In this document: positions 2,948-36,200 of the stretch, piece by piece
How positions within the stretch are numbered: the stretch's first letter is position 1
Layout of the letters: each line of letters begins with the position of its first letter
Origin: Balanoglossus misakiensis
Lineage: Eukaryota > Animalia > Hemichordata
Reading direction: 5' to 3'
DNA: 64,000 nucleotides
Assembly (NCBI GenBank): GCA_040954595.2
Contig: CM082587.2
Span: forward strand, 11,835,262-11,899,261
Program-made: the position numbers and the translations under genes
The notes under the pieces: generated by a model
The model's input: only the letters and a program-made list of their open reading frames with translations
What the model was told of the DNA's origin: nothing
Database searches by the model: none

Positions 2948-2958
2948 CTAGAATTACG
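2948..2958. other. MITE-loss scar type C, CTAGAATTACG (272-bp monomer, 17 copies)
   Basis: Read directly. Copies are marked by the 62-aa minus-strand ORFs. Confidence 0.85.
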
Positions 2959-10011: not shown

Positions 10012-10025
10012 CTAGAATTCTTACG
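10012..10025. other. MITE-loss scar type D, CTAGAATTCTTACG (275-bp monomer, 3 copies near 10.0, 38.0 and 51.4 kb)
   Basis: Read directly. Copies are marked by the 63-aa minus-strand ORFs and linked to the GAGTTGAGG SNP. Confidence 0.85.
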
Positions 10026-13000: not shown

Positions 13001-16000
13001 GATCTTACGTGCCATTGGAGAGCTCCATTGACTGGTCATTCATACTGTTTTCATTCATTCATTGCGGCATCAATATATTTTATCTATTCTAGCCAAAGAG
13101 CTTGGCACCTGTTGAAATGAACTCATCTGCTGTGGGCCAGTTTATTGGTGGCAGTTGAGCTGAGGAGAGCACCTTCCTTCCCGGCACGCCACCAAGTAAA
13201 GTTCCACGCCGCCCACCACAGATGCCAGCATTCATTCATGCGAGTGAGTGTAATTGCAAATTTGCCTATTCTAGAATTACGTGCCATTGGAGAGCTCCAT
13301 TGACTGGTCATTCATACTGTTTTCATTCATTCATTGCGGCATCAATATATTTTATCTATTCTAGCCAAAGAGCTTGGCACCTGTTGAAATGAACTCATCT
13401 GCTGTGGGCCAGTTTATTGGTGGCAGTTGAGCTGAGGAGAGCACCTTCCTTCCCGGCACGCCACCAAGTAAAGTTCCACGCCGCCCACCACAGATGCCAG
13501 CATTCATTCATGCGAGTGAGTGTAATTGCAAATTTGCCTATTCTAGATCTGTAATGGAAATGGAGAAAGTACCTTATATTTTCTGTAAAATAGACATTTA
13601 ATTGGCAAGCCGTCCTGCATCAATTATGAATTGTGTACATGCACTAAAGCGCCCTCACTGCTGGGTGTGTTGTATGGTCTTTAACCCTGTTTCAAATTAG
13701 AGTACTTTCTGCAATTTCAAGACAGATCTTACGTGCCATTGGAGAGCTCCATTGACTGGTCATTCATACTGTTTTCATTCATTCATTGCGGCATCAATAT
13801 ATTTTATCTATTCTAGCCAAAGAGCTTGGCACCTGTTGAAATGAACTCATCTGCTGTGGGCCAGTTTATTGGTGGCAGTTGAGCTGAGGAGAGCACCTTC
13901 CTTCCCGGCACGCCACCAAGTAAAGTTCCACGCCGCCCACCACAGATGCCAGCATTCATTCATGCGAGTGAGTGTAATTGCAAATTTGCCTATTCTAGAA
14001 TCTTACGTGCCATTGGAGAGCTCCATTGACTGGTCATTCATACTGTTTTCATTCATTCATTGCGGCATCAATATATTTTATCTATTCTAGCCAAAGAGCT
14101 TGGCACCTGTTGAAATGAACTCATCTGCTGTGGGCCAGTTTATTGGTGGCAGTTGAGCTGAGGAGAGCACCTTCCTTCCCGGCACGCCACCAAGTAAAGT
14201 TCCACGCCGCCCACCACAGATGCCAGCATTCATTCATGCGAGTGAGTGTAATTGCAAATTTGCCTATTCTAGATCTGTAATGGAAATGGAGAAAGTACCT
14301 TATATTTTCTGTAAAATAGACATTTAATTGGCAAGCCGTCCTGCATCAATTATTAATTGTGTACATGCACTAAAGCGCCCTCACTGCTGGGTGTGTTGTA
14401 TGGTCTTTAACCCTGTTTCAAATTAGAGTACTTTCTGCAATTTCAAGACAGATCTTACGTGCCATTGGAGAGCTCCATTGACTGGTCATTCATACTGTTT
14501 TCATTCATTCATTGCGGCATCAATATATTTTATCTATTCTAGCCAAAGAGCTTGGCACCTGTTGAAATGAACTCATCTGCTGTGGGCCAGTTTATTGGTG
14601 GCAGTTGAGCTGAGAAGAGCACCTTCCTTCCCGGCACGCCACCAAGTAAAGTTCCACGCCGCCCACCACAGATGCCAGCATTCATTCATGCGAGTGAGTG
14701 TAATTGCAAATTTGCCTATTCTAGATCTGTAATGGAAATGGAGAAAGTACCTTATATTTTCTGTAAAATAGACATTTAATTGGCAAGCCGTCCTGCATCA
14801 ATTATGAATTGTGTACATGCACTAAAGCGCCCTCACTGCTGGGTGTGTTGTATGGTCTTTAACCCTGTTTCAAATTAGAGTACTTTCTGCAATTTCAAGA
14901 CAGATCTTACGTGCCATTGGAGAGCTCCATTGACTGGTCATTCATACTGTTTTCATTCATTCATTGCGGCATCAATATATTTTATCTATTCTAGCCAAAG
15001 AGCTTGGCACCTGTTGAAATGAACTCATCTGCTGTGGGCCAGTTTATTGGTGGCAGTTGAGCTGAGGAGAGCACCTTCCTTCCCGGCACGCCACCAAGTA
15101 AAGTTCCACGCCGCCCACCACAGATGCCAGCATTCATTCATGCGAGTGAGTGTAATTGCAAATTTGCCTATTCTAGATCTGTAATGGAAATGGAGAAAGT
15201 ACCTTATATTTTCTGTAAAATAGACATTTAATTGGCAAGCCGTCCTGCATCAATTATGAATTGTGTACATGCACTAAAGCGCCCTCACTGCTGGGTGTGT
15301 TGTATGGTCTTTAACCCTGTTTCAAATTAGAGTACTTTCTGCAATTTCAAGACAGATCTTACGTGCCATTGGAGAGCTCCATTGACTGGTCATTCATACT
15401 GTTTTCATTCATTCATTGCGGCATCAATATATTTTATCTATTCTAGCCAAAGAGCTTGGCACCTGTTGAAATGAACTCATCTGCTGTGGGCCAGTTTATT
15501 GGTGGCAGTTGAGCTGAGGAGAGCACCTTCCTTCCCGGCACGCCACCAAGTAAAGTTCCACGCCGCCCACCACAGATGCCAGCATTCATTCATGCGAGTG
15601 AGTGTAATTGCAAATTTGCCTATTCTAGATCTGTAATGGAAATGGAGAAAGTACCTTATATTTTCTGTAAAATAGACATTTAATTGGCAAGCCGTCCTGC
15701 ATCAATTATGAATTGTGTACATGCACTAAAGCGCCCTCACTGCTGGGTGTGTTGTATGGTCTTTAACCCTGTTTCAAATTAGAGTACTTTCTGCAATTTC
15801 AAGACAGATCTTACGTGCCATTGGAGAGCTCCATTGACTGGTCATTCATACTGTTTTCATTCATTCATTGCGGCATCAATATATTTTATCTATTCTAGCC
15901 AAAGAGCTTGGCACCTGTTGAAATGAACTCATCTGCTGTGGGCCAGTTTATTGGTGGCAGTTGAGCTGAGAAGAGCACCTTCCTTCCCGGCACGCCACCA

Positions 16001-19000
16001 AGTAAAGTTCCACGCCGCCCACCACAGATGCCAGCATTCATTCATGCGAGTGAGTGTAATTGCAAATTTGCCTATTCTAGAATCTTACGTGCCATTGGAG
16101 AGCTCCATTGACTGGTCATTCATACTGTTTTCATTCATTCATTGCGGCATCAATATATTTTATCTATTCTAGCCAAAGAGCTTGGCACCTGTTGAAATGA
16201 ACTCATCTGCTGTGGGCCAGTTTATTGGTGGCAGTTGAGCTGAGGAGAGCACCTTCCTTCCCGGGACGCCACCAAGTAAAGTTCCACGCCGCCCACCACA
16301 GATGCCAGCATTCATTCATGCGAGTGAGTGTAATTGCAAATTTGCCTATTCTAGATTCTTACGTGCCATTGGAGAGCTCCATTGACTGGTCATTCATACT
16401 GTTTTCATTCATTCATTGCGGCATCAATATATTTTATCTATTCTAGCCAAAGAGCTTGGCACCTGTTGAAATGAACTCATCTGCTGTGGGCCAGTTTATT
16501 GGTGGCAGTTGAGCTGAGGAGAGCACCTTCCTTCCCGGCACGCCACCAAGTAAAGTTCCACGCCGCCCACCACAGATGCCAGCATTCATTCATGCGAGTG
16601 AGTGTAATTGCAAATTTGCCTATTCTAGATCTGTAATGGAAATGGAGAAAGTACCTTATATTTTCTGTAAAATAGACATTTAATTGGCAAGCCGTCCTGC
16701 ATCAATTATTAATTGTGTACATGCACTAAAGCGCCCTCACTGCTGGGTGTGTTGTATGGTCTTTAACCCTGTTTCAAATTAGAGTACTTTCTGCAATTTC
16801 AAGACAGATCTTACGTGCCATTGGAGAGCTCCATTGACTGGTCATTCATACTGTTTTCATTCATTCATTGCGGCATCAATATATTTTATCTATTCTAGCC
16901 AAAGAGCTTGGCACCTGTTGAAATGAACTCATCTGCTGTGGGCCAGTTTATTGGTGGCAGTTGAGCTGAGGAGAGCACCTTCCTTCCCGGCACGCCACCA
17001 AGTAAAGTTCCACGCCGCCCACCACAGATGCCAGCATTCATTCATGCGAGTGAGTGTAATTGCAAATTTGCCTATTCTAGATCTGTAATGGAAATGGAGA
17101 AAGTACCTTATATTTTCTGTAAAATAGACATTTAATTGGCAAGCCGTCCTGCATCAATTATGAATTGTGTACATGCACTAAAGCGCCCTCACTGCTGGGT
17201 GTGTTGTATGGTCTTTAACCCTGTTTCAAATTAGAGTACTTTCTGCAATTTCAAGACAGATCTTACGTGCCATTGGAGAGCTCCATTGACTGGTCATTCA
17301 TACTGTTTTCATTCATTCATTGCGGCATCAATATATTTTATGTATTCTAGCCAAAGAGCTTGGCACCTGTTGAAATGAACTCATCTGCTGTGGGCCAGTT
17401 TATTGGTGGCAGTTGAGCTGAGGAGAGCACCTTCCTTCCCGGCACGCCACCAAGTAAAGTTCCACGCCGCCCACCACAGATGCCAGCATTCATTCATGCG
17501 AGTGAGTGTAATTGCAAATTTGCCTATTCTAGATCTGTAATGGAAATGGAGAAAGTACCTTATATTTTCTGTAAAATAGACATTTAATTGGCAAGCCGTC
17601 CTGCATCAATTATTAATTGTGTACATGCACTAAAGCGCCCTCACTGCTGGGTGTGTTGTATGGTCTTTAACCCTGTTTCAAATTAGAGTACTTTCTGCAA
17701 TTTCAAGACAGATCTTACGTGCCATTGGAGAGCTCCATTGACTGGTCATTCATACTGTTTTCATTCATTCATTGCGGCATCAATATATTTTATCTATTCT
17801 AGCCAAAGAGCTTGGCACCTGTTGAAATGAACTCATCTGCTGTGGGCCAGTTTATTGGTGGCAGTTGAGCTGAGGAGAGCACCTTCCTTCCCGGCACGCC
17901 ACCAAGTAAAGTTCCACGCCGCCCACCACAGATGCCAGCATTCATTCATGCGAGTGAGTGTAATTGCAAATTTGCCTATTCTAGAATTACGTGCCATTGG
18001 AGAGCTCCATTGACTGGTCATTCATACTGTTTTCATTCATTCATTGCGGCATCAATATATTTTATCTATTCTAGCCAAAGAGCTTGGCACCTGTTGAAAT
18101 GAACTCATCTGCTGTGGGCCAGTTTATTGGTGGCAGTTGAGCTGAGGAGAGCACCTTCCTTCCCGGCACGCCACCAAGTAAAGTTCCACGCCGCCCACCA
18201 CAGATGCCAGCATTCATTCATGCGAGTGAGTGTAATTGCAAATTTGCCTATTCTAGATCTGTAATGGAAATGGAGAAAGTACCTTATATTTTCTGTAAAA
18301 TAGACATTTAATTGGCAAGCCGTCCTGCATCAATTATGAATTGTGTACATGCACTAAAGCGCCCTCACTGCTGGGTGTGTTGTATGGTCTTTAACCCTGT
18401 TTCAAATTAGAGTACTTTCTGCAATTTCAAGACAGATCTTACGTGCCATTGGAGAGCTCCATTGACTGGTCATTCATACTGTTTTCATTCATTCATTGCG
18501 GCATCAATATATTTTATCTATTCTAGCCAAAGAGCTTGGCACCTGTTGAAATGAACTCATCTGCTGTGGGCCAGTTTATTGGTGGCAGTTGAGCTGAGGA
18601 GAGCACCTTCCTTCCCGGCACGCCACCAAGTAAAGTTCCACGCCGCCCACCACAGATGCCAGCATTCATTCATGCGAGTGAGTGTAATTGCAAATTTGCC
18701 TATTCTAGATCTGTAATGGAAATGGAGAAAGTACCTTATATTTTCTGTAAAATAGACATTTAATTGGCAAGCCGTCCTGCATCAATTATGAATTGTGTAC
18801 ATGCACTAAAGCGCCCTCACTGCTGGGTGTGTTGTATGGTCTTTAACCCTGTTTCAAATTAGAGTACTTTCTGCAATTTCAAGACAGATCTTACGTGCCA
18901 TTGGAGAGCTCCATTGACTGGTCATTCATACTGTTTTCATTCATTCATTGCGGCATCAATATATTTTATCTATTCTAGCCAAAGAGCTTGGCACCTGTTG

Positions 19001-19080
19001 AAATGAACTCATCTGCTGTGGGCCAGTTTATTGGTGGCAGTTGAGCTGAGGAGAGCACCTTCCTTCCCGGCACGCCACCA

Positions 19081-20884
19081 AGTAAAGTTCCACGTGCATT
19101 CCTGGCCCTGGTTTTATTTATGTTTACAGACAATATTGCATTTTTGTACAAGTATTTTAATCAACTATAAATTTTGAATGTGTCATTTACCTGAACCGGT
19201 CATGTTGACCAGAATGATACATTTCTGCCTTCACTCACCCTATAAATATGTGATTGAGACATAGGTCATTTGCATAAGCTAACATACCAGAAAGTAAGCA
19301 TATCTGTTGTTTTCCCTGTGTCACTGCCATCAAAGTAAAAATTAGACGTTGTGTAGAGCAAACTCCAATTTTTTGTTCTCAATAAACATGGATGAATTAC
19401 ATAGAATGTGTTTGTTGTTTACAGTCTTTAAATGACACATTAGATTATGCACTTTACAAAACGTTTCTGAGAAACAAGTGACTAACTAGTTTCTTTCCAC
19501 TGTGGCCAACGTGGTTCACTGTTTGTGTCAGAATCTCTCTGTTTTGCAAGGATTTTGAAATCATAGTGGTGACATGCATAGTGAAAATCAGCTACTTTCA
19601 AATGTCCGTCATGTTCATGCTGTAATTGAATTTTCAAAGCTGGGCTGGCGTGTTTTTTCTTATTTACATAAGTATCACACTTTATACATGTATCTTCATG
19701 GGGTTTTTTGAGTCCCGTATTTAGGTCCTCTCTCACAATTTTACGAAATATCGTATAACTGACAGTTGTTCTTCCCAGAAGAGATTGGTTGGTTATGAAC
19801 TCTCGGTGTAACTGCGATATACTGTGGTCCGGCGCCAGGTACGGTTTAAATCGAGGATTCCTGCAGTAGTGAGATTCTACAATTCTGTGCCTGCGTACGT
19901 GTTCAGTGATATCAGTCAGCAAATTTGGATTGAGTTTCCGACGATGCCCTTTGTGTCGGCCCCTTGCATCTGGCATCAGACCAGTAAAGTTCCATGTGCA
20001 TTCCTGGCCCTGGTTTTATTTATGTTTACAGACAATATTGCATTTTTGTACAAGTATTTTAATCAACTATAAATTTTGAATGTGTCATTTACCTGAACCG
20101 GTCATGTTGACCAGAATGATACATTTCTGCCTTCACTCACCCTATAAATATGTGATTGAGACATAGGTCATTTGCATAAGCTAACATACCAGAAAGTAAG
20201 CATATCTGTTGTTTTCCCTGTGTCACTGCCATCAAAGTAAAAATTAGACGTTGTGTAGAGCAAACTCCAATTTTTTGTTCTCAATAAACATGGATGAATT
20301 ACATAGAATGTGTTTGTTGTTTACAGTCTTTAAATGACACATTAGATTATGCACTTTACAAAACGTTTCTGAGAAACAAGTGACTAACTAGTTTCTTTCC
20401 ACTGTGGCCAACGTGGTTCACTGTTTGTGTCAGAATCTCTCTGTTTTGCAAGGATTTTGAAATCATAGTGGTGACATGCATAGTGAAAATCAGCTACTTT
20501 CAAATGTCCGTCATGTTCATGCTGTAATTGAATTTTCAAAGCTGGGCTGGCGTGTTTTTTCTTATTTACATAAGTATCACACTTTATACATGTATCTTCA
20601 TGGGGTTTTCTGAGTCCCGTATTTAGGTCCTCTCTCACAATTTTACGAAATATCGTATAACTGACAGTTGTTCTTCCCAGAAGAGATTGGTTGGTTATGA
20701 ACTCTCGGTGTAACTGCGATATACTGTGGTCCGGCGCCAGGTACGGTTTAAATCGAGGATTCCTGCAGTAGTGAGATTCTACAATTCTGTGCCTGCGTAC
20801 GTGTTCAGTGATATCAGTCAGCAAATTTGGATTGAGTTTCCGACGATGCCCTTTGTGTCGGCCCCTTGCATCTGGCATCAGACC
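19081..20884. repeat. 902-bp direct tandem duplication (19081-19982 / 19983-20884)
   Basis: Same sequence at offset 902 (ORF stops at 19482 and 20384). Two differences seen: 19093 C/19995 T and 19708 T/20610 C. Confidence 0.97.
19482..19976 (-). pseudogene. 5'-truncated duplicate of the transposase N-half gene (164 aa from an internal Met)
   Basis: Identical to the last 164 aa of 20384-21340 except GLKKP vs GLRKP. Created by the 902-bp duplication. Confidence 0.85.
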
Positions 20885-21340
20885 AGTTGAACAGTGCATC
20901 ATTTTGCTTAGAACGGTTCTAGTCCGCCTCTCACTAATGCCAAATAATTTCAGGAATGCATTTTTGCAGACAGTAACCGTTTCACCGCCTTCATTCACCA
21001 GGTGATAACGAACCGATTTCTTGTGTGACTTCATCTGTATATCCATCAGTTTGTAGAGCATCAAGTTCTGTTCATTATACACGCGACCATCAAAATATTT
21101 TCTCGTGGTGCCTAAAACATGCGTACTCCCAAGCTTCCGCAGACAATTCCCTTGAACGCAGGCGCATTCCAAGGAAAGACTGTCAATATCTGGAAAAGGG
21201 CGATTTTTCCTTGGTTTTTGTCTCGGACACGTCTTTTTAGAATTCCTACGTGGCTTGTTGGCTCGAGCTGACAGTTCGGTTCTGCGTTGCTGCCACACAG
21301 GAATGGGTTCCCACGCATAAGCAACTCCCCGGCAGGCCAT
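20384..21340 (-). CDS. Transposase N-terminal half (Cys/His-rich DNA-binding region, Sola1-like), 318 aa
   Basis: Motifs CACVQGNC, VTVCKNAFLKLFGISERR, DARGRH, ESHYCR, YL..., KPHEDTCIKCD and H..H occur in the order typical of the N-terminal part of this transposase family. True ATG at 21340 in ACCATGG context; the ORF track start at 21346 is GTG. Confidence 0.8.
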   Translation of the reverse strand: MACRGVAYAWEPIPVWQQRRTELSARANKPRRNSKKTCPRQKPRKNRPFPDIDSLSLECACVQGNCLRKLGSTHVLGTTRKYFDGRVYNEQNLMLYKLMDIQMKSHKKSVRYHLVNEGGETVTVCKNAFLKLFGISERRTRTVLSKMMHCSTGLMPDARGRHKGHRRKLNPNLLTDITEHVRRHRIVESHYCRNPRFKPYLAPDHSISQLHREFITNQSLLGRTTVSYTIFRKIVREDLNTGLRKPHEDTCIKCDTYVNKKKHASPALKIQLQHEHDGHLKVADFHYACHHYDFKILAKQRDSDTNSEPRWPQWKETS

Positions 21341-21511
21341 GGTCACAGCTGAAGTATTTGTTCAAGTACTGACTGACTAAACGCGGCATGGAACAAACGA
21401 ACGAACGAACGAACGACTTCACGTTCGGAAAAAAAATCGTTGCGAGCTGTTGGGTGCCTCTATAGTTGTCGGCAACCGTTCTTTTTTATTGCTAAACAAT
21501 GCTGTCAGAGC
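21341..21511. promoter_or_regulatory. 171-bp divergent intergenic region (putative bidirectional promoter) with (AACG)5 at 21396-21415
   Basis: Lies between two divergent ATGs that both have good Kozak context. Promoter function is inferred only from geometry. Confidence 0.5.
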
Positions 21512-22525
21512 ATGGAAGGTGTGGTGGAAAACGAACAGAGGTTTTGTACGACCAACGATTGGATGGTGCTACATATGGACTTCCACAAGTCATTGCCGGT
21601 TCCTAAACTCAGCTCTGAAGACTTTTACTTTAAATCGAAATTGCAAATGAAGCTCCTTGGAATTTACAACGGGACAACGGAAAAGATGCATTGTTATGTA
21701 TGGACAGAGCTCGATAGCAGAAAGTCTCCCGATGAAGTTATTACCTGTCTAAATCACTTTTTTTATAACTCGGGTGTGACCAGCAGACATGCAGTTATTT
21801 ACAGCGACAACTGCCGTGCCGAATTCAAGTGTGGGAAGTTAATGTTTTACTATGACTATCTGTTACGAAAGGGCGTGTTTCGACGAATTGACTATAAAAC
21901 TCTTGTGGCTGGACACACGTACTCCACCTGTGACCGAGTTTTTGCGTCCATTGAAAGGCATGCAAGTCGTTTCCAGAGTATAGAGACACCTCACGATTGG
22001 ACATCTGTGATTCGAGGATCTTCTCTGAATGGGAACATTGGAGTTACGGAGATGACTCACAGAGACTTTTTCAATTATTCTGATTTCCTGAAAAATGAGT
22101 ACGTTGTGCGTTATGCAGATACAAACAATGTAACTTTTTACTACCAAGCCATGCACTATTTTAATTTTGGAGAAGGAGAAAGGCTTGATACCGACGGCAA
22201 CCTCAGAACATTTAGTCATGCAGATAAAGTTTGGGTGAGAACATCTCTAGATCCAAGCGAGACCCCGATTGTAGTCGACTTTAGAAAGAAGAAGCAGAAC
22301 CGGCGTTTACAAGATTGTACGCTGAACAAACTTTATCAGGAACGTCGACCACTGGCGAGCAAAGTTTGGCGGGATCTTCAGAGTTTAGCCAAAAATTACC
22401 TGTCTCCGGAGGCAATAGAATTTTATAGGAATCTACCGCTTCAGGAGAGTAGTGGCACCTCTGCAGACCCGTACGCCTTTCATGATGATGACGACGACGA
22501 TGATGATGATATGGGCGGTGGTTGA
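21512..22525 (+). CDS. Transposase catalytic half (RNase H-fold DDD, Sola1-like), 337 aa with acidic C-terminal tail
   Basis: Motifs VLHMDFHKSLPVP, FYFKSKL, CYVWTE, DEVITCL, IYSDNCRAEFK and VAGHTYSTCDRVFASIE give the D, D, H-x4-D signature. ATG at 21512 in AGCATGG. Tail HDDDDDDDDDMGGG. Confidence 0.88.
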   Translation: MEGVVENEQRFCTTNDWMVLHMDFHKSLPVPKLSSEDFYFKSKLQMKLLGIYNGTTEKMHCYVWTELDSRKSPDEVITCLNHFFYNSGVTSRHAVIYSDNCRAEFKCGKLMFYYDYLLRKGVFRRIDYKTLVAGHTYSTCDRVFASIERHASRFQSIETPHDWTSVIRGSSLNGNIGVTEMTHRDFFNYSDFLKNEYVVRYADTNNVTFYYQAMHYFNFGEGERLDTDGNLRTFSHADKVWVRTSLDPSETPIVVDFRKKKQNRRLQDCTLNKLYQERRPLASKVWRDLQSLAKNYLSPEAIEFYRNLPLQESSGTSADPYAFHDDDDDDDDDMGGG

Positions 22526-22685
22526 ACAAACTGTCCTTTTCATGACGACAGTGATTTTGGATATTTGATGTGCGTGCACAGTTTATATGTAATATTTTCA
22601 CACGAACGAGTTTTGACTGAATTTGATTAAAGAATGTACTCGATAATTAACAAATGTGCTGAATCGTGGTTATTATGTTGTTAAT

Positions 22686-22711
22686 TTTTGTTTGTTTGTT
22701 TGTTTGTTTGT
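22686..22711. repeat. (TTTG)n microsatellite downstream of the catalytic gene
   Basis: TTTTGTTTGTTTGTTTGTTTGTTTGT read directly. An ATTAAA poly(A)-signal candidate lies at 22626-22631. Confidence 0.8.
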
Positions 22712-23008
22712 AAACAATTTCCGTTCATTCAACTGGCTACAAAGTTGGATTTTTGTACTGGGAAGCGATAAACTCGCACATCAAAACCGGGGAGACTCGA
22801 TCATTTTTCCCTGCAGGTAGCCTGAAAAGCACCCGGGCAGAGATTACGTCATATATGGTCCACTTTAATACGAAATTATGCAAATGTGACATTTCACGGA
22901 AACGGCGTATATAAAAGCGACCCTGGGCTATTGTTCGGAATGCGTCATCGACGAGAGAGTGACTGATAATTCTTCTACCTCGAGTCAACCATTCTGTATA
23001 TACTGAAC

Positions 23009-24335
23009 ATGGCTAGCTGGCGCAGGAAGAGACAAGGCAATGTGCGGTCTGTAATCAACGAACGGCACCGCTCAGTTCAGTGTCCCTTTCTTCAAAAGTG
23101 GATCGGTGAGCAATTGGTATTTTCAGGTCGTTCAGAGGATGAAGTCCAGTCCAGTACTGTATTTGAGAGCTACAAATGTTGGGTTGAAAACTATTCGTCG
23201 GCGGACAATCAAGTAATGATTATGGTTACTAAAGCTCGATTTTTCAAGGTGAGAATGATCGCATTTTTCTTCCCCCCCCCCCTCCCTCCCCCAAGGGACT
23301 CGTTTTCTGTCTCTTTTAAACCTGTAACTTAACGAAAAGGAAGTTTTTCACATATCTCTTTGTTGACACTATAGCAATTTGGAGCGCGGATGCTTCAAGA
23401 GAATAGCGTTACCAAATCAAAGTCGGCCGGGGTTAATATTTATAGAGGTGTTCGTCTGAAAGCTGGTTCGCGAAGAATCTCAACGGGGAAACCTGAGCAC
23501 AGTGTACTTCAGACCAGGGCAAGGGCATTTCTTGATGACGCCAGCGTGACCGTTCCGATCGAGGTAAGAATGGTGTTTTGTTTGGACTAGGACAATAGAA
23601 CGTTGCAATGAGTGTGTCAATGGGTGTCCAAGTGCAAACGTGGTCGGCTTCTGTCCACAAATGCCATTAATTTTAGGCAGGATTTATAAAATTGTCAATG
23701 AAGAATACAAAAATGAAAAACAATAGTTAATAGCAAACGGGTAGGATTGCAAGGGCTTGTAAAACGGTACACACTGTACCAGGAAGTTTGCAACACTAAT
23801 GAAGAATGTATATGATATATTTAGGTGAGAACTGTTCGCGATCGCCGGGACGCAGGACGGTGCGCGTTTTCGACGAGGGATCTTCAAGCCTGGAACGTCG
23901 TCTGCGAATACCGGGGCACGGTTATTAGCGTTGAAGAAGCTAGTCGGCGTGATGAACTTTACAGGGCAGAGGGGAAACGACCACGCATGTTTCATCTCTA
24001 CATTGGAAAGAGACACGTTGTGTGAGTGTATCACTTAGTCGAATATATGGTCATATATTGCAAAGCATCTGTCGAAATAGAAAACGTAATATTGTCTATA
24101 TTTTCCTCATTAACGCAGCATTGACGGATACGATGTCCCAGCCGGTGAAGAAAATTTAGCGGGCCTAATAAATCACAGTCAGCAGAACGCCAACTTGGTA
24201 CCGGTTCGGATCGGAGAGCGCCTGGTTTTCTTTGCAACCAGGAATCTTTGTCAGGGAGTAGAGCTTTTGTATGATTACGGTGACGGGGGTGAAGAGGATT
24301 TCTTCAGTGGTTCTCAAACTTTTCCTGAAAATTAA
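23009..24335 (+). CDS. Spliced gene, 280 aa: N-terminal winged-helix-like domain + PR-Set7/SETD8-like SET methyltransferase; exons 23009-23248, 23375-23563, 23825-24021, 24119-24335
   Basis: Three GT-AG introns (AAG|GTGAGA, GAG|GTAAGA, GT|GTGAGT; acceptors ATAG, TTAG, GCAG) join in frame (843 nt). SET motifs GRCAFSTRD, VCEYRG, IDG, LAGLINHS and ELLYDYGD. N-terminus FLQKWI...VFESYKCW...FFKQFG...IYRGVRLK resembles RFX/D5-primase C-terminal winged helices. Confidence 0.88.
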
Positions 24336-25242
24336 GGCATTAACACATCAACGCTTCGGGATGTCGTAACGGCGGCAAGGCGGGGGGGGGGGGGGGGGGG
24401 CGTGAAAATGTTTGTATCAGGAACAAAATTCCCGTGCAAATCACCTTGATCCGGGTGGGTGGACTATTCGCGACAAATGTTGAAATCATACAAAGCATTT
24501 TACTTAATTAACCCATTTTTTTCATTTATTTGTTTACAGTTTACAACGTCATAGAGAAGTTGAACTAGAGACTGGATCAGCGTGGGTGACACCATAGTAC
24601 ACCAATGTTTTCTTCAGTTTGATTCAATTGTAATTTAAAACTGAGATTGCCTAACGCTTTCCCAGATTTTTTTAACCACTGAGAAACTGTGGGTTTTTTT
24701 CTGGGTTTTGGTGCGAGGTGATCTCAGTCAGTGGTGTTAATTTAATTAATCATTTTCTTTTCCTATTTACGTCGACTGAAATGTATTTTGATAGGTGATA
24801 GTCATACCATAAAAAAATCTTACGGCGCGACTGCCAAAATGTACATTTATTTGTCCGTTCCAAGTTATTTTGTGTATGTGTGATGGGTGCCGGTGACTGT
24901 GCAGGGTTGATTTCCCTAGAGCGACTGTTATATTCGTTTTCCAACGATGATGAATTTACATGTTATTTGCTTGGCATTTTGACGCAGAGACACTTCTGAA
25001 AACACAAACCTATTAATTATGCCACGGGTGTAAATTGATCACATTAAAAGAGGCTTTAGACGTTTGCCGCGAGCTCCTGGTGGGCAGAATCTTGTCAGCC
25101 CAAATTTGACTATAAGTACATAGCCAATGATGTGACGCTCTCCCACATCCTTCGCCGCGCCTTTTCGCTGATTTACAGCATCTTGCGTAAACACTGTCAT
25201 TTGATCTTGCTTGGCAGAAGTCAACTTGCTCTATACTACATT

Positions 25243-25608
25243 ATGGCGGCCAAGCTCAACTGCATATCAGATAATGCCAAGGAGCGTTTGAGAGGCATCC
25301 TCGCCAGAAGGAGTCGCGTTTCCGGTGACTGTGTGCTCTGGACGGGTGCAGCTTGTCGAAACGGCTATGGCTCTATTACGTTCAGAGATGAGAACACTCT
25401 AACCGCCTATGTCCATCACATTGCACTCCTAATTAACGGAGTGCAATTGGTGGGCAGGCGGTTAGAGTGTTCTCATCTTTGCAACGAAAAGCTATGCATC
25501 CGCCCAGAGCACATTGTCCAGGAAACGCGACTCCTAAACATTTCACGAAAGACGTGCTTTAAATCCCCAAAAGGGGAGTGTCACCACGATCCCAGGTGCC
25601 TAAGGTGA
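25243..25608 (+). CDS. His-Cys box / His-Me finger (HNH-like) endonuclease, 121 aa
   Basis: Motifs DCVLWTGA, NGYG, YVHH, ECSHLCNEKLCIRPEHIVQE, NISRKTC and ECHHDPRC match the zinc-binding loop of I-PpoI-like homing endonucleases. ATG at 25243 (ATTATGG). The stop overlaps a possible AG|GTGAGT donor, so a further exon is possible. Confidence 0.85.
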   Translation: MAAKLNCISDNAKERLRGILARRSRVSGDCVLWTGAACRNGYGSITFRDENTLTAYVHHIALLINGVQLVGRRLECSHLCNEKLCIRPEHIVQETRLLNISRKTCFKSPKGECHHDPRCLR

Positions 25609-26592
25609 GTAATCCTCTTCTCATTTGATATGTATTGTGTGACCCTGCAGTTGAAACGCTTTCATCAATAATTTGCGGCGCGTGGGTAATCTCGGTGTTA
25701 TTGACAATGCAGCCGGCCCAAACATTTTTAAATTAACACTGTTTCTGACTGTATTAACGAAATGTCCAATTTGCAAGTAGCCTATAGACAACCCTTTTGA
25801 ATGAGTTTTGTCTCGTTGAGATTTTATACATAAGGAACAATCTAGATTTATTTTAGAAGACACTGTTCTTTTAAAACAGCTAGCATAATACAGCTAAATT
25901 TCGGAATTTCCGGACAATTTTCGGAATTCCTTTTAAATTTGAGAAATTTTTCATCAGATATAAGTGTTACTATTTATTGGACATGTTTTTATCATTGTTT
26001 ACTTTTTAAGGTCATTCTCATCCCCCCCCCCCCCCCCCAAAAAAAAAGCCGCTTTAGGCTTCATGTTCAGTAAAAAATCTGGAAAGTTCAGCTGAATTTT
26101 ACACTGATCACACATTTTTGGGAAGGTCTGGCGCAAAATAAAGGATGACAAATGTAAATCTAATGTCACATTTGTAAACCTCTAAGTATTGTACACTCAT
26201 TCTATTAAGTATATGCAAATAGTACGGATAATTTTTTCGGAATGTGGAATTCCGAAATTAGTTCGGAACGTGTTAGCAGTGAAGAGATCACCACTGAGGG
26301 TTGGAAGGCCTTGCCAGAAATTAACGCGTAAAGTACGCCCTCACAGGCCATGTAAACAAGGTCAAATAAGGCCGTCTGGCAAACGAATGATTAATTCAAC
26401 GCGCCATTTGAGCCGAGCTGAGTTGGTCTGAGTTGCGTATCACACAGACTTAGGCTGAATGTCAGTGGAGTAACCAGTCCGTTTTAGATTTACCAATGAT
26501 GTGAATTTAATTTCTTCACCCAGAAAAACAGAACACAACTTGTCTGCAACATGATGCTGGAGGTGACACATGACAGAGAAGTGGATCCGCGT

Positions 26593-26930
26593 TGTCAACA
26601 CAGATGCCAGCATTCAAAAGGGGAGTGCCACCTGCTAAAATCAACTCATCTGCTGTTGGCCCATTTTACCTGTGGCAACTGTTCAGAGGAGACAACGTTT
26701 ATTCCGTGCAAGCCAACACGCAATGTTGGGGTCTACCTGTCAACACAGATGCAAGCATTCATGTGAGTGAGTATCAGGACTGACCTTGTTTTGCTGAATA
26801 ATTCATAATGCCTATTTTAGAATTCTTAGAGGCATTTGGAGTTCATTGCCTGGTCAACCAAACTACACCCCTTAACAGCTGAAACAAAATGCGTATTGTG
26901 TTCATTCATTCATTGCTTCAATATATATAG
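26593..26930 (+). repeat. Diverged, MITE-free homolog of the satellite monomer inside the element
   Basis: Collinear blocks: CACCTGCTAAAATCAACTCATCTGCTGTTGGCC, GTGGCA, GAGGAGA, ACACAGATGCAAGCATTCATGTGAGTGAGT, TGCCTATTTTAGAATTCTTA, CATTGCCTGGTCA and TTCATTCATTCATTGC..TCAATATAT. Same orientation as the array. Confidence 0.9.
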
Positions 26931-27241
26931 GCAACATGAGTATCAAGTAGCACTATTTGTTTACGATTGTATTCATGAAAACTTCCCACTAACAATTCCA
27001 CAGTTAATATTGAACACATTTATCCAACAAGGTCAAAAGAAAAAGGGAATCTTCTGGTTCCAAAATACGCCACAAATGTGGGTCAACATACAGTGAAATA
27101 TTATGGTGCTCAAATATGCAACATATCAAATCTGTCTCATCAAAGTCATGCTTTAAAAAAGAATTGAAAAGGTATTATTTATCCATTTGACTGCTGTATT
27201 TTCAGAAGGAAAACAAACTGAATTTGGTTTTTCATGTACAA

Positions 27242-30200
27242 ATATTTTCTGTAAAATAGACATTTAATTGGCAAGCCGTCCTGCATCAATTATTAATTGT
27301 GTACATGCACTAAAGCGCCCTCACTGCTGGGTGTGTTGTATGGTCTTTAACCCTGTTTCAAATTAGAGTACTTTCTGCAATTTCAAGACAGATCTTACGT
27401 GCCATTGGAGAGCTCCATTGACTGGTCATTCATACTGTTTTCATTCATTCATTGCGGCATCAATATATTTTATGTATTCTAGCCAAAGAGCTTGGCACCT
27501 GTTGAAATGAACTCATCTGCTGTGGGCCAGTTTATTGGTGGCAGTTGAGCTGAGGAGAGCACCTTCCTTCCCGGCACGCCACCAAGTAAAGTTCCACGCC
27601 GCCCACCACAGATGCCAGCATTCATTCATGCGAGTGAGTGTAATTGCAAATTTGCCTATTCTAGATCTGTAATGGAAATGGAGAAAGTACCTTATATTTT
27701 CTGTAAAATAGACATTTAATTGGCAAGCCGTCCTGCATCAATTATTAATTGTGTACATGCACTAAAGCGCCCTCACTGCTGGGTGTGTTGTATGGTCTTT
27801 AACCCTGTTTCAAATTAGAGTACTTTCTGCAATTTCAAGACAGATCTTACGTGCCATTGGAGAGCTCCATTGACTGGTCATTCATACTGTTTTCATTCAT
27901 TCATTGCGGCATCAATATATTTTATCTATTCTAGCCAAAGAGCTTGGCACCTGTTGAAATGAACTCATCTGCTGTGGGCCAGTTTATTGGTGGCAGTTGA
28001 GCTGAGGAGAGCACCTTCCTTCCCGGCACGCCACCAAGTAAAGTTCCACGCCGCCCACCACAGATGCCAGCATTCATTCATGCGAGTGAGTGTAATTGCA
28101 AATTTGCCTATTCTAGAATTACGTGCCATTGGAGAGCTCCATTGACTGGTCATTCATACTGTTTTCATTCATTCATTGCGGCATCAATATATTTTATCTA
28201 TTCTAGCCAAAGAGCTTGGCACCTGTTGAAATGAACTCATCTGCTGTGGGCCAGTTTATTGGTGGCAGTTGAGCTGAGGAGAGCACCTTCCTTCCCGGCA
28301 CGCCACCAAGTAAAGTTCCACGCCGCCCACCACAGATGCCAGCATTCATTCATGCGAGTGAGTGTAATTGCAAATTTGCCTATTCTAGATCTGTAATGGA
28401 AATGGAGAAAGTACCTTATATTTTCTGTAAAATAGACATTTAATTGGCAAGCCGTCCTGCATCAATTATTAATTGTGTACATGCACTAAAGCGCCCTCAC
28501 TGCTGGGTGTGTTGTATGGTCTTTAACCCTGTTTCAAATTAGAGTACTTTCTGCAATTTCAAGACAGATCTTACGTGCCATTGGAGAGCTCCATTGACTG
28601 GTCATTCATACTGTTTTCATTCATTCATTGCGGCATCAATATATTTTATCTATTCTAGCCAAAGAGCTTGGCACCTGTTGAAATGAACTCATCTGCTGTG
28701 GGCCAGTTTATTGGTGGCAGTTGAGCTGAGGAGAGCACCTTCCTTCCCGGGACGCCACCAAGTAAAGTTCCACGCCGCCCACCACAGATGCCAGCATTCA
28801 TTCATGCGAGTGAGTGTAATTGCAAATTTGCCTATTCTAGATTCTTACGTGCCATTGGAGAGCTCCATTGACTGGTCATTCATACTGTTTTCATTCATTC
28901 ATTGCGGCATCAATATATTTTATCTATTCTAGCCAAAGAGCTTGGCACCTGTTGAAATGAACTCATCTGCTGTGGGCCAGTTTATTGGTGGCAGTTGAGC
29001 TGAGGAGAGCACCTTCCTTCCCGGCACGCCACCAAGTAAAGTTCCACGCCGCCCACCACAGATGCCAGCATTCATTCATGCGAGTGAGTGTAATTGCAAA
29101 TTTGCCTATTCTAGATCTGTAATGGAAATGGAGAAAGTACCTTATATTTTCTGTAAAATAGACATTTAATTGGCAAGCCGTCCTGCATCAATTATTAATT
29201 GTGTACATGCACTAAAGCGCCCTCACTGCTGGGTGTGTTGTATGGTCTTTAACCCTGTTTCAAATTAGAGTACTTTCTGCAATTTCAAGACAGATCTTAC
29301 GTGCCATTGGAGAGCTCCATTGACTGGTCATTCATACTGTTTTCATTCATTCATTGCGGCATCAATATATTTTATCTATTCTAGCCAAAGAGCTTGGCAC
29401 CTGTTGAAATGAACTCATCTGCTGTGGGCCAGTTTATTGGTGGCAGTTGAGCTGAGGAGAGCACCTTCCTTCCCGGCACGCCACCAAGTAAAGTTCCACG
29501 CCGCCCACCACAGATGCCAGCATTCATTCATGCGAGTGAGTGTAATTGCAAATTTGCCTATTCTAGAATTACGTGCCATTGGAGAGCTCCATTGACTGGT
29601 CATTCATACTGTTTTCATTCATTCATTGCGGCATCAATATATTTTATCTATTCTAGCCAAAGAGCTTGGCACCTGTTGAAATGAACTCATCTGCTGTGGG
29701 CCAGTTTATTGGTGGCAGTTGAGCTGAGGAGAGCACCTTCCTTCCCGGCACGCCACCAAGTAAAGTTCCACGCCGCCCACCACAGATGCCAGCATTCATT
29801 CATGCGAGTGAGTGTAATTGCAAATTTGCCTATTCTAGATCTGTAATGGAAATGGAGAAAGTACCTTATATTTTCTGTAAAATAGACATTTAATTGGCAA
29901 GCCGTCCTGCATCAATTATGAATTGTGTACATGCACTAAAGCGCCCTCACTGCTGGGTGTGTTGTATGGTCTTTAACCCTGTTTCAAATTAGAGTACTTT
30001 CTGCAATTTCAAGACAGATCTTACGTGCCATTGGAGAGCTCCATTGACTGGTCATTCATACTGTTTTCATTCATTCATTGCGGCATCAATATATTTTATC
30101 TATTCTAGCCAAAGAGCTTGGCACCTGTTGAAATGAACTCATCTGCTGTGGGCCAGTTTATTGGTGGCAGTTGAGCTGAGGAGAGCACCTTCCTTCCCGG

Positions 30201-33200
30201 CACGCCACCAAGTAAAGTTCCACGCCGCCCACCACAGATGCCAGCATTCATTCATGCGAGTGAGTGTAATTGCAAATTTGCCTATTCTAGATCTGTAATG
30301 GAAATGGAGAAAGTACCTTATATTTTCTGTAAAATAGACATTTAATTGGCAAGCCGTCCTGCATCAATTATTAATTGTGTACATGCACTAAAGCGCCCTC
30401 ACTGCTGGGTGTGTTGTATGGTCTTTAACCCTGTTTCAAATTAGAGTACTTTCTGCAATTTCAAGACAGATCTTACGTGCCATTGGAGAGCTCCATTGAC
30501 TGGTCATTCATACTGTTTTCATTCATTCATTGCGGCATCAATATATTTTATCTATTCTAGCCAAAGAGCTTGGCACCTGTTGAAATGAACTCATCTGCTG
30601 TGGGCCAGTTTATTGGTGGCAGTTGAGCTGAGAAGAGCACCTTCCTTCCCGGCACGCCACCAAGTAAAGTTCCACGCCGCCCACCACAGATGCCAGCATT
30701 CATTCATGCGAGTGAGTGTAATTGCAAATTTGCCTATTCTAGATCTGTAATGGAAATGGAGAAAGTACCTTATATTTTCTGTAAAATAGACATTTAATTG
30801 GCAAGCCGTCCTGCATCAATTATGAATTGTGTACATGCACTAAAGCGCCCTCACTGCTGGGTGTGTTGTATGGTCTTTAACCCTGTTTCAAATTAGAGTA
30901 CTTTCTGCAATTTCAAGACAGATCTTACGTGCCATTGGAGAGCTCCATTGACTGGTCATTCATACTGTTTTCATTCATTCATTGCGGCATCAATATATTT
31001 TATCTATTCTAGCCAAAGAGCTTGGCACCTGTTGAAATGAACTCATCTGCTGTGGGCCAGTTTATTGGTGGCAGTTGAGCTGAGGAGAGCACCTTCCTTC
31101 CCGGCACGCCACCAAGTAAAGTTCCACGCCGCCCACCACAGATGCCAGCATTCATTCATGCGAGTGAGTGTAATTGCAAATTTGCCTATTCTAGATCTGT
31201 AATGGAAATGGAGAAAGTACCTTATATTTTCTGTAAAATAGACATTTAATTGGCAAGCCGTCCTGCATCAATTATGAATTGTGTACATGCACTAAAGCGC
31301 CCTCACTGCTGGGTGTGTTGTATGGTCTTTAACCCTGTTTCAAATTAGAGTACTTTCTGCAATTTCAAGACAGATCTTACGTGCCATTGGAGAGCTCCAT
31401 TGACTGGTCATTCATACTGTTTTCATTCATTCATTGCGGCATCAATATATTTTATCTATTCTAGCCAAAGAGCTTGGCACCTGTTGAAATGAACTCATCT
31501 GCTGTGGGCCAGTTTATTGGTGGCAGTTGAGCTGAGGAGAGCACCTTCCTTCCCGGCACGCCACCAAGTAAAGTTCCACGCCGCCCACCACAGATGCCAG
31601 CATTCATTCATGCGAGTGAGTGTAATTGCAAATTTGCCTATTCTAGATCTGTAATGGAAATGGAGAAAGTACCTTATATTTTCTGTAAAATAGACATTTA
31701 ATTGGCAAGCCGTCCTGCATCAATTATGAATTGTGTACATGCACTAAAGCGCCCTCACTGCTGGGTGTGTTGTATGGTCTTTAACCCTGTTTCAAATTAG
31801 AGTACTTTCTGCAATTTCAAGACAGATCTTACGTGCCATTGGAGAGCTCCATTGACTGGTCATTCATACTGTTTTCATTCATTCATTTCGGCATCAATAT
31901 ATTTTATCTATTCTAGCCAAAGAGCTTGGCACCTGTTGAAATGAACTCATCTGCTGTGGGCCAGTTTATTGGTGGCAGTTGAGCTGAGAAGAGCACCTTC
32001 CTTCCCGGCACGCCACCAAGTAAAGTTCCACGCCGCCCACCACAGATGCCAGCATTCATTCATGCGAGTGAGTGTAATTGCAAATTTGCCTATTCTAGAA
32101 TCTTACGTGCCATTGGAGAGCTCCATTGACTGGTCATTCATACTGTTTTCATTCATTCATTGCGGCATCAATATATTTTATCTATTCTAGCCAAAGAGCT
32201 TGGCACCTGTTGAAATGAACTCATCTGCTGTGGGCCAGTTTATTGGTGGCAGTTGAGCTGAGGAGAGCACCTTCCTTCCCGGGACGCCACCAAGTAAAGT
32301 TCCACGCCGCCCACCACAGATGCCAGCATTCATTCATGCGAGTGAGTGTAATTGCAAATTTGCCTATTCTAGATTCTTACGTGCCATTGGAGAGCTCCAT
32401 TGACTGGTCATTCATACTGTTTTCATTCATTCATTGCGGCATCAATATATTTTATCTATTCTAGCCAAAGAGCTTGGCACCTGTTGAAATGAACTCATCT
32501 GCTGTGGGCCAGTTTATTGGTGGCAGTTGAGCTGAGGAGAGCACCTTCCTTCCCGGCACGCCACCAAGTAAAGTTCCACGCCGCCCACCACAGATGCCAG
32601 CATTCATTCATGCGAGTGAGTGTAATTGCAAATTTGCCTATTCTAGATCTGTAATGGAAATGGAGAAAGTACCTTATATTTTCTGTAAAATAGACATTTA
32701 ATTGGCAAGCCGTCCTGCATCAATTATTAATTGTGTACATGCACTAAAGCGCCCTCACTGCTGGGTGTGTTGTATGGTCTTTAACCCTGTTTCAAATTAG
32801 AGTACTTTCTGCAATTTCAAGACAGATCTTACGTGCCATTGGAGAGCTCCATTGACTGGTCATTCATACTGTTTTCATTCATTCATTGCGGCATCAATAT
32901 ATTTTATCTATTCTAGCCAAAGAGCTTGGCACCTGTTGAAATGAACTCATCTGCTGTGGGCCAGTTTATTGGTGGCAGTTGAGCTGAGGAGAGCACCTTC
33001 CTTCCCGGCACGCCACCAAGTAAAGTTCCACGCCGCCCACCACAGATGCCAGCATTCATTCATGCGAGTGAGTGTAATTGCAAATTTGCCTATTCTAGAA
33101 TTACGTGCCATTGGAGAGCTCCATTGACTGGTCATTCATACTGTTTTCATTCATTCATTGCGGCATCAATATATTTTATCTATTCTAGCCAAAGAGCTTG

Positions 33201-36200
33201 GCACCTGTTGAAATGAACTCATCTGCTGTGGGCCAGTTTATTGGTGGCAGTTGAGCTGAGGAGAGCACCTTCCTTCCCGGCACGCCACCAAGTAAAGTTC
33301 CACGCCGCCCACCACAGATGCCAGCATTCATTCATGCGAGTGAGTGTAATTGCAAATTTGCCTATTCTAGATCTGTAATGGAAATGGAGAAAGTACCTTA
33401 TATTTTCTGTAAAATAGACATTTAATTGGCAAGCCGTCCTGCATCAATTATGAATTGTGTACATGCACTAAAGCGCCCTCACTGCTGGGTGTGTTGTATG
33501 GTCTTTAACCCTGTTTCAAATTAGAGTACTTTCTGCAATTTCAAGACAGATCTTACGTGCCATTGGAGAGCTCCATTGACTGGTCATTCATACTGTTTTC
33601 ATTCATTCATTGCGGCATCAATATATTTTATCTATTCTAGCCAAAGAGCTTGGCACCTGTTGAAATGAACTCATCTGCTGTGGGCCAGTTTATTGGTGGC
33701 AGTTGAGCTGAGGAGAGCACCTTCCTTCCCGGCACGCCACCAAGTAAAGTTCCACGCCGCCCACCACAGATGCCAGCATTCATTCATGCGAGTGAGTGTA
33801 ATTGCAAATTTGCCTATTCTAGATCTGTAATGGAAATGGAGAAAGTACCTTATATTTTCTGTAAAATAGACATTTAATTGGCAAGCCGTCCTGCATCAAT
33901 TATTAATTGTGTACATGCACTAAAGCGCCCTCACTGCTGGGTGTGTTGTATGGTCTTTAACCCTGTTTCAAATTAGAGTACTTTCTGCAATTTCAAGACA
34001 GATCTTACGTGCCATTGGAGAGCTCCATTGACTGGTCATTCATACTGTTTTCATTCATTCATTGCGGCATCAATATATTTTATCTATTCTAGCCAAAGAG
34101 CTTGGCACCTGTTGAAATGAACTCATCTGCTGTGGGCCAGTTTATTGGTGGCAGTTGAGCTGAGAAGAGCACCTTCCTTCCCGGCACGCCACCAAGTAAA
34201 GTTCCACGCCGCCCACCACAGATGCCAGCATTCATTCATGCGAGTGAGTGTAATTGCAAATTTGCCTATTCTAGATCTGTAATGGAAATGGAGAAAGTAC
34301 CTTATATTTTCTGTAAAATAGACATTTAATTGGCAAGCCGTCCTGCATCAATTATGAATTGTGTACATGCACTAAAGCGCCCTCACTGCTGGGTGTGTTG
34401 TATGGTCTTTAACCCTGTTTCAAATTAGAGTACTTTCTGCAATTTCAAGACAGATCTTACGTGCCATTGGAGAGCTCCATTGACTGGTCATTCATACTGT
34501 TTTCATTCATTCATTGCGGCATCAATATATTTTATCTATTCTAGCCAAAGAGCTTGGCACCTGTTGAAATGAACTCATCTGCTGTGGGCCAGTTTATTGG
34601 TGGCAGTTGAGCTGAGGAGAGCACCTTCCTTCCCGGCACGCCACCAAGTAAAGTTCCACGCCGCCCACCACAGATGCCAGCATTCATTCATGCGAGTGAG
34701 TGTAATTGCAAATTTGCCTATTCTAGATCTGTAATGGAAATGGAGAAAGTACCTTATATTTTCTGTAAAATAGACATTTAATTGGCAAGCCGTCCTGCAT
34801 CAATTATGAATTGTGTACATGCACTAAAGCGCCCTCACTGCTGGGTGTGTTGTATGGTCTTTAACCCTGTTTCAAATTAGAGTACTTTCTGCAATTTCAA
34901 GACAGATCTTACGTGCCATTGGAGAGCTCCATTGACTGGTCATTCATACTGTTTTCATTCATTCATTGCGGCATCAATATATTTTATCTATTCTAGCCAA
35001 AGAGCTTGGCACCTGTTGAAATGAACTCATCTGCTGTGGGCCAGTTTATTGGTGGCAGTTGAGCTGAGGAGAGCACCTTCCTTCCCGGCACGCCACCAAG
35101 TAAAGTTCCACGCCGCCCACCACAGATGCCAGCATTCATTCATGCGAGTGAGTGTAATTGCAAATTTGCCTATTCTAGATCTGTAATGGAAATGGAGAAA
35201 GTACCTTATATTTTCTGTAAAATAGACATTTAATTGGCAAGCCGTCCTGCATCAATTATGAATTGTGTACATGCACTAAAGCGCCCTCACTGCTGGGTGT
35301 GTTGTATGGTCTTTAACCCTGTTTCAAATTAGAGTACTTTCTGCAATTTCAAGACAGATCTTACGTGCCATTGGAGAGCTCCATTGACTGGTCATTCATA
35401 CTGTTTTCATTCATTCATTGCGGCATCAATATATTTTATCTATTCTAGCCAAAGAGCTTGGCACCTGTTGAAATGAACTCATCTGCTGTGGGCCAGTTTA
35501 TTGGTGGCAGTTGAGCTGAGGAGAGCACCTTCCTTCCCGGCACGCCACCAAGTAAAGTTCCACGCCGCCCACCACAGATGCCAGCATTCATTCATGCGAG
35601 TGAGTGTAATTGCAAATTTGCCTATTCTAGATCTGTAATGGAAATGGAGAAAGTACCTTATATTTTCTGTAAAATAGACATTTAATTGGCAAGCCGTCCT
35701 GCATCAATTATGAATTGTGTACATGCACTAAAGCGCCCTCACTGCTGGGTGTGTTGTATGGTCTTTAACCCTGTTTCAAATTAGAGTACTTTCTGCAATT
35801 TCAAGACAGATCTTACGTGCCATTGGAGAGCTCCATTGACTGGTCATTCATACTGTTTTCATTCATTCATTGCGGCATCAATATATTTTATCTATTCTAG
35901 CCAAAGAGCTTGGCACCTGTTGAAATGAACTCATCTGCTGTGGGCCAGTTTATTGGTGGCAGTTGAGCTGAGAAGAGCACCTTCCTTCCCGGCACGCCAC
36001 CAAGTAAAGTTCCACGCCGCCCACCACAGATGCCAGCATTCATTCATGCGAGTGAGTGTAATTGCAAATTTGCCTATTCTAGAATCTTACGTGCCATTGG
36101 AGAGCTCCATTGACTGGTCATTCATACTGTTTTCATTCATTCATTGCGGCATCAATATATTTTATCTATTCTAGCCAAAGAGCTTGGCACCTGTTGAAAT

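Follow-up and report, generated by a model that had tools for sequence, protein, structure and literature searches.

The stretch of DNA analysed here, referred to below as the window, comprises 64,000 nt of the hemichordate Balanoglossus misakiensis (contig CM082587.2 of assembly GCA_040954595.2, positions 11,835,262 to 11,899,261 of the forward strand) and consists of a satellite array with a single interruption by an 8.3-kb segment. Two genes of this segment encode the halves of a transposase. The first (20384..21340, minus strand) specifies a 318-residue N-subunit that matches the N-terminal half of one-piece DUF7869 transposases, and the second (21512..22525, plus strand) a 337-residue catalytic C-subunit with a DUF7869 domain, an RNase H/integrase fold and a D-D-D triad. 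The 171-bp spacer between their divergent start codons (21341..21511) is a candidate shared promoter. Further along the plus strand lie a gene for a 280-residue SET methyltransferase (23009..24335, with exons at 23009-23248, 23375-23563, 23825-24021 and 24119-24335) and one for a 121-residue I-PpoI-like His-Cys box endonuclease (25243..25608; PF05551, E 6.7e-13). Comparison with relatives indicates that the split is not damage: within the DUF7869 (Sola-like) DDD transposases, one clade has long had its transposase in two pieces and has conserved this trait. The data described below give good support to such a conserved two-gene transposase and its SET cargo.

The C-half scores 54.6 bits against Pfam DUF7869 (PF25273), for which the gathering score is 26 (E 1.4e-14). 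Its triad is formed by D23, D99 and D141, counted from the Met, and the protein has an acidic tail; the second and third aspartates are at least 90% conserved in 79 alignment rows, and the first is present in the full-length rows. The structure model (predicted local distance difference test, pLDDT, 90) adopts an RNase H/integrase fold, and its best Foldseek matches are integrases and IstA (E ~1e-4, template modelling score ~0.3). The N-half features a CxxC motif and a long C-terminal helix. It has no Pfam match, and neither half matches any Harbinger-type Pfam family. Its model is weaker (pLDDT 75, predicted template modelling score 0.46), and at a threshold of E 0.001 Foldseek matched it to no PDB structure. 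Its position within one-piece proteins makes the N-subunit the likely DNA-binding part.

Searching 1.84 billion representatives with the C-half gave 3,052 matches at E <= 0.001, the best 150 of which were analysed. The closest relatives are stand-alone proteins of about 310 residues. None of the 13 closest matches contains the N-half, and 10 of the 12 closest (36–52% identity) start just ahead of the first catalytic strand and the first D. One-piece (fused) proteins account for 80 of the remaining 137. The difference in fusion between the top 13 and the other 137 corresponds to a Fisher p of 3e-5, with the reservation that the matches are not independent. Stand-alone length can be an artefact of gene calling, however, and for this reason the loci were examined at the DNA level.

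A metagenome scan yielded 20 loci and a genome-contig scan four more (L021–L024); 11 of these 24 are close and belong to the split clade (L001–L007 and L021–L024), and 13 are more distant. In all five split-clade loci in which both halves are found (L001, L002, L004, L022 and L023), they are separate open reading frames (ORFs) on opposite strands, the halves of L001 being interrupted by one stop and frameshifts. Eight of the 13 distant loci have both parts in line on one strand, and the other five show the C part only. Viral-contig scans with C, N and nuclease queries and a first genome-contig scan gave no matches. Named members of the family come from Acropora millepora and Porites lobata, and a C-half from Nematostella vectensis. 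The contigs of L021–L024 are filed in bacterial genome bins, where an animal-type element likely reflects host contamination.

The N-family was followed separately. A word-based search with the N-half of the window found no relative within 0.55–1.75 times the query length. A search with the N-half of L002 (proteins of 170–543 aa) gave 111 clusters, none of which matches the C profile; 40 lack the end motif of the family, and all 71 that bear it terminate no more than 25 aa after it. The split point is kept on both sides, with N-subunits ending a few residues past one motif and C-subunits beginning just before the first catalytic strand. Because the N alignment pairs with residues 114–374 of the one-piece protein P0032 (hhalign probability 98.9) and the catalytic part of P0032 starts near residue 380, the cut lies in a short linker. 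In a quick, unrooted tree of 57 rows (48 of the 150 proteins, of our own choosing, 8 loci and the window), the 16 rows labelled as split, together with P0028, form one side of a branch with a Shimodaira–Hasegawa-like approximate likelihood ratio (SH-aLRT) support of 99. The ratio of nonsynonymous to synonymous substitution rates (dN/dS) is 0.21 for the C pair L004/L005 and 0.14–0.18 for two N pairs, dS being saturated in most other pairs. In P0007, a protein sister to the split clade, a PHD-finger-like domain (Pfam E 0.001, below the cut-off) directly precedes the catalytic domain, at the linker that is severed in split-clade members.

The two halves are predicted to re-assemble. Modelled as a complex, N and C score 0.69, compared with 0.01 for the best of three controls, and pass a mark that is attained by 51 of 78 solved pairs and 2 of 108 mismatched pairs; the runs agree in at least 70% of contacts, with a partner pLDDT of at least 62. 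In the model, the last helix and the CxxC of the N-half pack on the RNase H sheet beside an invariant GH motif of the C-half, where C251 and C254 of N and a histidine of the helix could possibly share a zinc site with the GH histidine of C.

The SET gene has GT/AG introns, and exons 3 and 4 account for the Pfam SET match. A SET gene of four exons, with three introns at the same positions and in the same phases as in the window, is also present in L002 and L006, which identifies it as cargo of the family. It lies upstream of the C gene, at 3.0 kb in L002 and 1.6 kb in L006, and is divergent from it. Beyond these two and L022, the other 8 split-clade loci have less than 2 kb of flank on the SET side, or none. 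Exon 4 matches KMT5A at E 8e-4, second to another SET protein, and KMT5A is favoured among human enzymes; for exon 3 the best match is KMT2C (E 2e-4), with KMT5A at 0.03. The N-terminal domain of the protein is conserved in L002 and L006, and single-exon searches of Pfam, PHROGs and the PDB gave no winged-helix match for it. Most of the lower-depth variants listed for exon 4 are silent (7 of 9). The gene product is likely a histone-marking enzyme and would likely modify the element's own chromatin. An earlier note on this DNA, made from the sequence alone, had described a split DDD transposase within a single transposon family, with a chance nest of fragments as the alternative. The split transposase and the single family are both borne out: DUF7869 and D-D-D identify the transposase, the split recurs in every split-clade locus that has both halves, and split transposase and SET gene recur in coral-type loci with conserved introns, the gene order being different. 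The winged-helix label that the note gave to the SET protein found no support in the searches above, and its SET8-like label agrees better with the matches of exon 4 than with those of exon 3.

Several observations weigh against this picture. Twenty-two of 138 distant matches appear to be C-only as well. The halves are divergent (head to head) in the window and convergent (tail to tail) in coral-type loci. The near-identical pair L022/L023 gives a dN/dS of 0.9–1.6, uninformative given too few changes, and L022 has no SET gene within 5.3 kb upstream of its C-half. Searches for terminal inverted repeats (TIRs) in L001, L002, L004, L006, L021 and L022 revealed neither element ends nor a target-site duplication in any relative examined, and the case for mobility therefore rests on the many near-identical cluster members and not on an insertion site. 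The complex prediction may reflect memory of one-piece homologues, a known caveat of the tool; since the halves of a split gene can pass by their likeness to intact homologues, we take the score as support and not as proof.

Two other accounts of the halves have to be considered. We find it hardly credible that the window holds a one-off transposase, broken by an inversion, in a chance nest of fragments: the failure of the window N-half alone to match any relative in the word-based search would fit, but the conserved split point, the confinement to one clade, the purifying selection and the conserved SET introns argue against it. It is also very unlikely that the active protein is a single chain to which the two halves contribute as exons, united by trans-splicing or by a DNA inversion. 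The opposite strands in five of five loci would suit such a scheme, as would the AG ahead of the C start in the window, L001 and L006, and the 36-bp inverted repeat around the C-subunit gene of L022 (L022:6187-6222 / 7415-7450), one arm of which lies just before the start codon and which is possibly the scar of an inversion that reoriented the C gene. The N frames, however, end in stops at the matching place and share no donor site, and the C frames have their own in-frame Met, which makes trans-splicing less likely; moreover, the inverted repeat is found in one locus only and the orientation varies between lineages. The conserved split remains our preferred interpretation.

The split-clade loci show some further features. 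Related inserts, 84–87% identical, with 25-bp TIRs and TTAA-like ends, lie upstream of the C gene in L002 (L002:3663-4715) and L022 (L022:7929-8549). Degenerate partial duplicates of the C gene are found just downstream of it in L001 (L001:2733-2992), and a 2-kb foldback, 79% self-complementary, follows the truncated N gene of L024 (L024:2109-4098). Rfam searches of six loci gave a single tRNA, in L023.

The satellite array occupies 1..19094 and 27392..64000 of the window and is built from a monomer of 272–275 bp with or without a 177-bp miniature inverted-repeat transposable element (MITE), the monomer with the MITE measuring 452 bp. An anchor motif marks 141 monomers at intervals of 452 bp (94 times), 274 bp (25 times), 272 bp (17 times) and 275 bp (three times), with one of 8,504 bp at the site of the four-gene segment. 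Among the monomers there are no more than 15 sequence types, distinguished by single bases and by the 177-bp insert. The MITE, present in 96 of the 141 monomers and absent from 45, has the ends CTGT...ACAG and 24-bp TIRs that agree at 19 of 24 positions (for example the copy at 18711..18887). It is flanked by AT on each side, and dispersed relatives in sequencing run X1 likewise have AT-run flanks, which suggests a 2-bp AT target duplication. A 4-bp GATC duplication was ruled out, as a dispersed relative carries TATC at that place. All MITE copies occupy the same site and there is one single-nucleotide polymorphism (SNP) among the 96, so that a single insertion was tandemly amplified; repeated targeted insertion is ruled out by the same data.

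None of the 45 MITE-less monomers has a clean site with a single AT. They have instead four junction types (17, 13, 12 and 3 copies), each amplified several times, and all four fit a change of the element-adjacent base to its complement on one or both sides. Such a change is the footprint of excision through flanking hairpins, as in hAT and RAG. Two of the four types fit a plain loss of one base equally well, and the 275-bp type matches the sequence of a relic monomer within the segment and could be ancestral. The junctions point to the MITE having been excised three or four times during growth of the array; the monomers would thus preserve several excision-like events, and the timing of these relative to the growth of the satellite can be worked out. 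A run of 35 monomer types near 3412 recurs exactly 27,971 bp downstream (near 31383), with the element in neither copy of the block.

The left join of the segment to the array (19094/19095) is abrupt, falling at position 198 of the monomer and some 65 bp upstream of the MITE site, and has no TIR. No left TIR was found anywhere in the segment, so it does not have the TIRs at both ends that an intact copy would show. At this edge lies a 905-bp tandem duplicate (19081..19985) of 19983-20887, with two differences, the first 14 bases of which are satellite; it includes a shortened copy of the 3' part of the N-half gene (19482-19985, minus strand). To the right of the endonuclease gene, a loose inverted repeat (26309..26535, 71% self-match) sits in a patchwork of host repeats, and a diverged relic of about 1.3 satellite monomers (26593..26926, plus strand) is 72% identical to the satellite monomer over 137 bp (26626-26762), with further short matches. 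Runs X1 and X2 contain further diverged monomer subfamilies and a 395-bp deletion form of 26496-26926. The inventory given in the earlier note, with four intact ORFs, a MITE in the array and a diverged monomer in the segment, is thus real. Its statement that the MITE is identical to the right end of the segment is correct for the 150 bp at 27242..27391, which include the right TIR, but is partly circular: from 27242 onward the sequence is ordinary array, and the junction itself is within a MITE. These 150 bp could be the true right end of the element, or they could belong to an array monomer, with the junction at the inner border of its left TIR, and whether the MITE is the element's own is about an even question. 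The genes (20384-24335) lack CpG depletion, with an observed/expected ratio of 1.03 against 0.45 in the array (1-19000), and Rfam has no match in 17500-28500.

The endonuclease aligns to I-PpoI (E 0.002) and keeps the residues matching S97, H98, H110, E114 and N119, which figure among the I-PpoI-like active-site residues in the relevant passages of the KolobokP paper (PMC9587614), so that its identification in the earlier note as a His-Cys endonuclease stands. It was found in none of the 24 loci, where the two SET-bearing contigs end about 185–310 bp past the SET stop and are too short for linkage, and neither the word-based search (0.55–1.75 times its length) nor the viral-contig scan found a relative. 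In another copy, as a low-depth joint in both X1 and X2 shows, SET exon 4 is connected with sequence that lies upstream of the nuclease. The endonuclease itself is probably a passenger specific to this lineage.

The contigs of run X1 have a depth of about 600–1,100 over the transposase and SET genes, about 1,560 (twice the baseline) over the 905-bp duplication, and 70,000–150,000 over the array, roughly hundredfold above the genes. This pattern suggests that most copies share the 905-bp duplication with its satellite bases and would have spread with the array, by passive amplification. Against this, contig depth is not copy number, and a diverged contig (depth 69) has the same left join, which may accordingly be old and structural and not a recent deletion. 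The loose ends of X2 join at GATC, as expected from what is likely a proximity-ligation library, and X2 depths were not used. Runs X3 and X4 (share 0.06) contained only short exact pieces at a depth of about 2 and were not used as a second species.

These data bear on the right third of the segment (nuclease, repeat patchwork and relic). Together with the MITE, it may be unrelated DNA that deletions between the array and flanking heterochromatin brought up against a broken element; the family with split transposase and SET gene would still be real. We regard this as possible but doubtful. Beyond 24830 the depth rises and fluctuates more, variant contigs and loose ends being numerous there, no relative of the nuclease was found in the loci and searches above, the MITE target duplication differs in length from that of Sola2, and there is microhomology at both joins. 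On the other hand, the right join coincides with the edge of the TIR, a baseline depth of about 700 in X1 is common to all parts of the segment, and the joint from SET to the nuclease upstream region recurs in another copy. This explanation shares the core of our preferred one and differs from it only on the right arm.

The earlier note had further proposed a self-contained system that targets, cuts and marks the satellite. In its fullest form, the four-gene element would have founded the satellite from its own MITE and target, with the MITE in the founder monomer, array copies supplying the transposase (whence the footprints), the His-Cys endonuclease breaking the array, so driving unequal exchange and an expansion in which the element is copied as well, and the SET enzyme marking it. 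A few features are as this would predict: the right join coincides with the inner border of the left TIR, where an X2 contig shows 4–5 bases of microhomology, the pattern expected of a MITE formed by internal deletion; the left join is close to the MITE site; the active-site residues of the nuclease are intact; and SET exon 4 is joined to the nuclease upstream region in another copy. L022 sits between copies of a 1.05-kb tandem unit, and KolobokP is a published model of endonuclease-driven multimerisation (PMC9587614, relevant passages). We nonetheless consider it unlikely, and the proposal of a self-contained system is not sustained. One site and one SNP in 96 copies indicate one insertion, the window copy has no left TIR, and the 2-bp AT of the MITE differs from the 4-bp AWWT target duplications of Sola2 (PMC3627910, in the parts that treat Sola2). 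The nuclease is missing from all 24 loci, and the monomer relic belongs to a more ancient family of repeats, further subfamilies of which are present in the run. Nor do copies of the element always lie in a satellite, a point that the earlier note had put up for testing: a tandem-repeat cluster adjoins two of the 11 split-clade loci, L022 and the nearly identical L023, and the other nine have no flanking array within their contigs. The clusters are short arrays of the 1.05-kb unit with a 158-bp sub-repeat (L022:493-2317 and 9329-11564, L023:444-2006). If the founding scheme were nonetheless true, the element would be a selfish one that replicates by growing a satellite instead of jumping.

Taken as a whole, the segment is probably a copy of a two-gene DUF7869 transposon with SET cargo, without its left TIR, that was passively multiplied with the satellite. 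An ancestral one-piece transposase gene would have been cut in the short linker and both pieces retained under purifying selection, with the last helix of the N-subunit docking on the RNase H sheet of C, possibly around the shared zinc site. One MITE, and perhaps the full element at the same AT site, would have entered a founder monomer, after which the array would have expanded; three or four excisions of the MITE by a transposase would have come later. The long copy may have lost its left end and gained the 905-bp duplication before spreading only as part of the array.

The element works like a Sola-type DDD transposon, with which it shares DUF7869, a family we take to be Sola1, above the cut-off and the D-D-D triad on an RNase H fold. 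Sola elements have a single transposase ORF; here there are two ORFs on opposite strands, in the window as in the five loci with both, and the element also carries a SET gene. The motif order resembles by eye that in the Sola2 alignment of supplement S10 of PMC3627910, although the motif detail differs; the MITE flanks share only two bases, AT, and not the four of Sola2. We found no description of a split Sola/DUF7869 transposase in the literature searched, and no mention in the relevant passages of PMC5751038, PMC4455052, PMC3985635 and PMC10294476; Repbase and Dfam lay outside this scope and may hold two-ORF entries.

SET methyltransferase passengers are known from other DNA transposons, the HarbingerS and oomycete MuDR elements (Kojima and Jurka 2014, as cited in the relevant part of PMC12730594). 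These belong to another transposase superfamily and host group; the SET-bearing cases described there are oomycete, and the present ones come from an animal clade and have an intron-bearing SET gene with a conserved extra N-terminal domain. KolobokP of marine invertebrates also combines a DDD/E transposase with an I-PpoI-like His-Cys nuclease that has the key residues, has repeats of about 450 bp, and is proposed to multimerise through its nuclease (PMC9587614, relevant passages). Its Kolobok transposase, LTDR-INT-LTDR organisation and RR...YY ends were not seen here, where the transposase is of DUF7869 type and the MITE ends are CT...AG; the KolobokP terminal repeat has its own TIRs, whereas the 452-bp monomer is target plus MITE and the joins fall inside monomers. 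Transposon-derived satellites, in which tandem arrays carry transposon sequence in their monomers, are likewise described (PMC5932611 and PMC12628747, in the passages on such arrays); in the present monomer a MITE is added to a host unit, and the array has fixed several excision-like footprints.

The split form has a practical consequence in that annotation expecting one ORF will miss it or call it broken. Transposons with two genes include PIF/Harbinger (a transposase and a Myb-like protein), CACTA and ProtoRAG, in which DNA binding and catalysis likewise come from separate genes, often on opposite strands. In those systems the second gene is of separate origin, whereas here the two genes are collinear halves of one ancestral protein, and the one-piece form survives in sister groups of the split clade. 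Nature has thus divided a cut-and-paste transposase, throughout a clade, into a DNA-binding and a catalytic subunit. This provides a two-part transposase that can be tested, and allows the origin of two-component transposases such as that of Harbinger to be studied by direct comparison.

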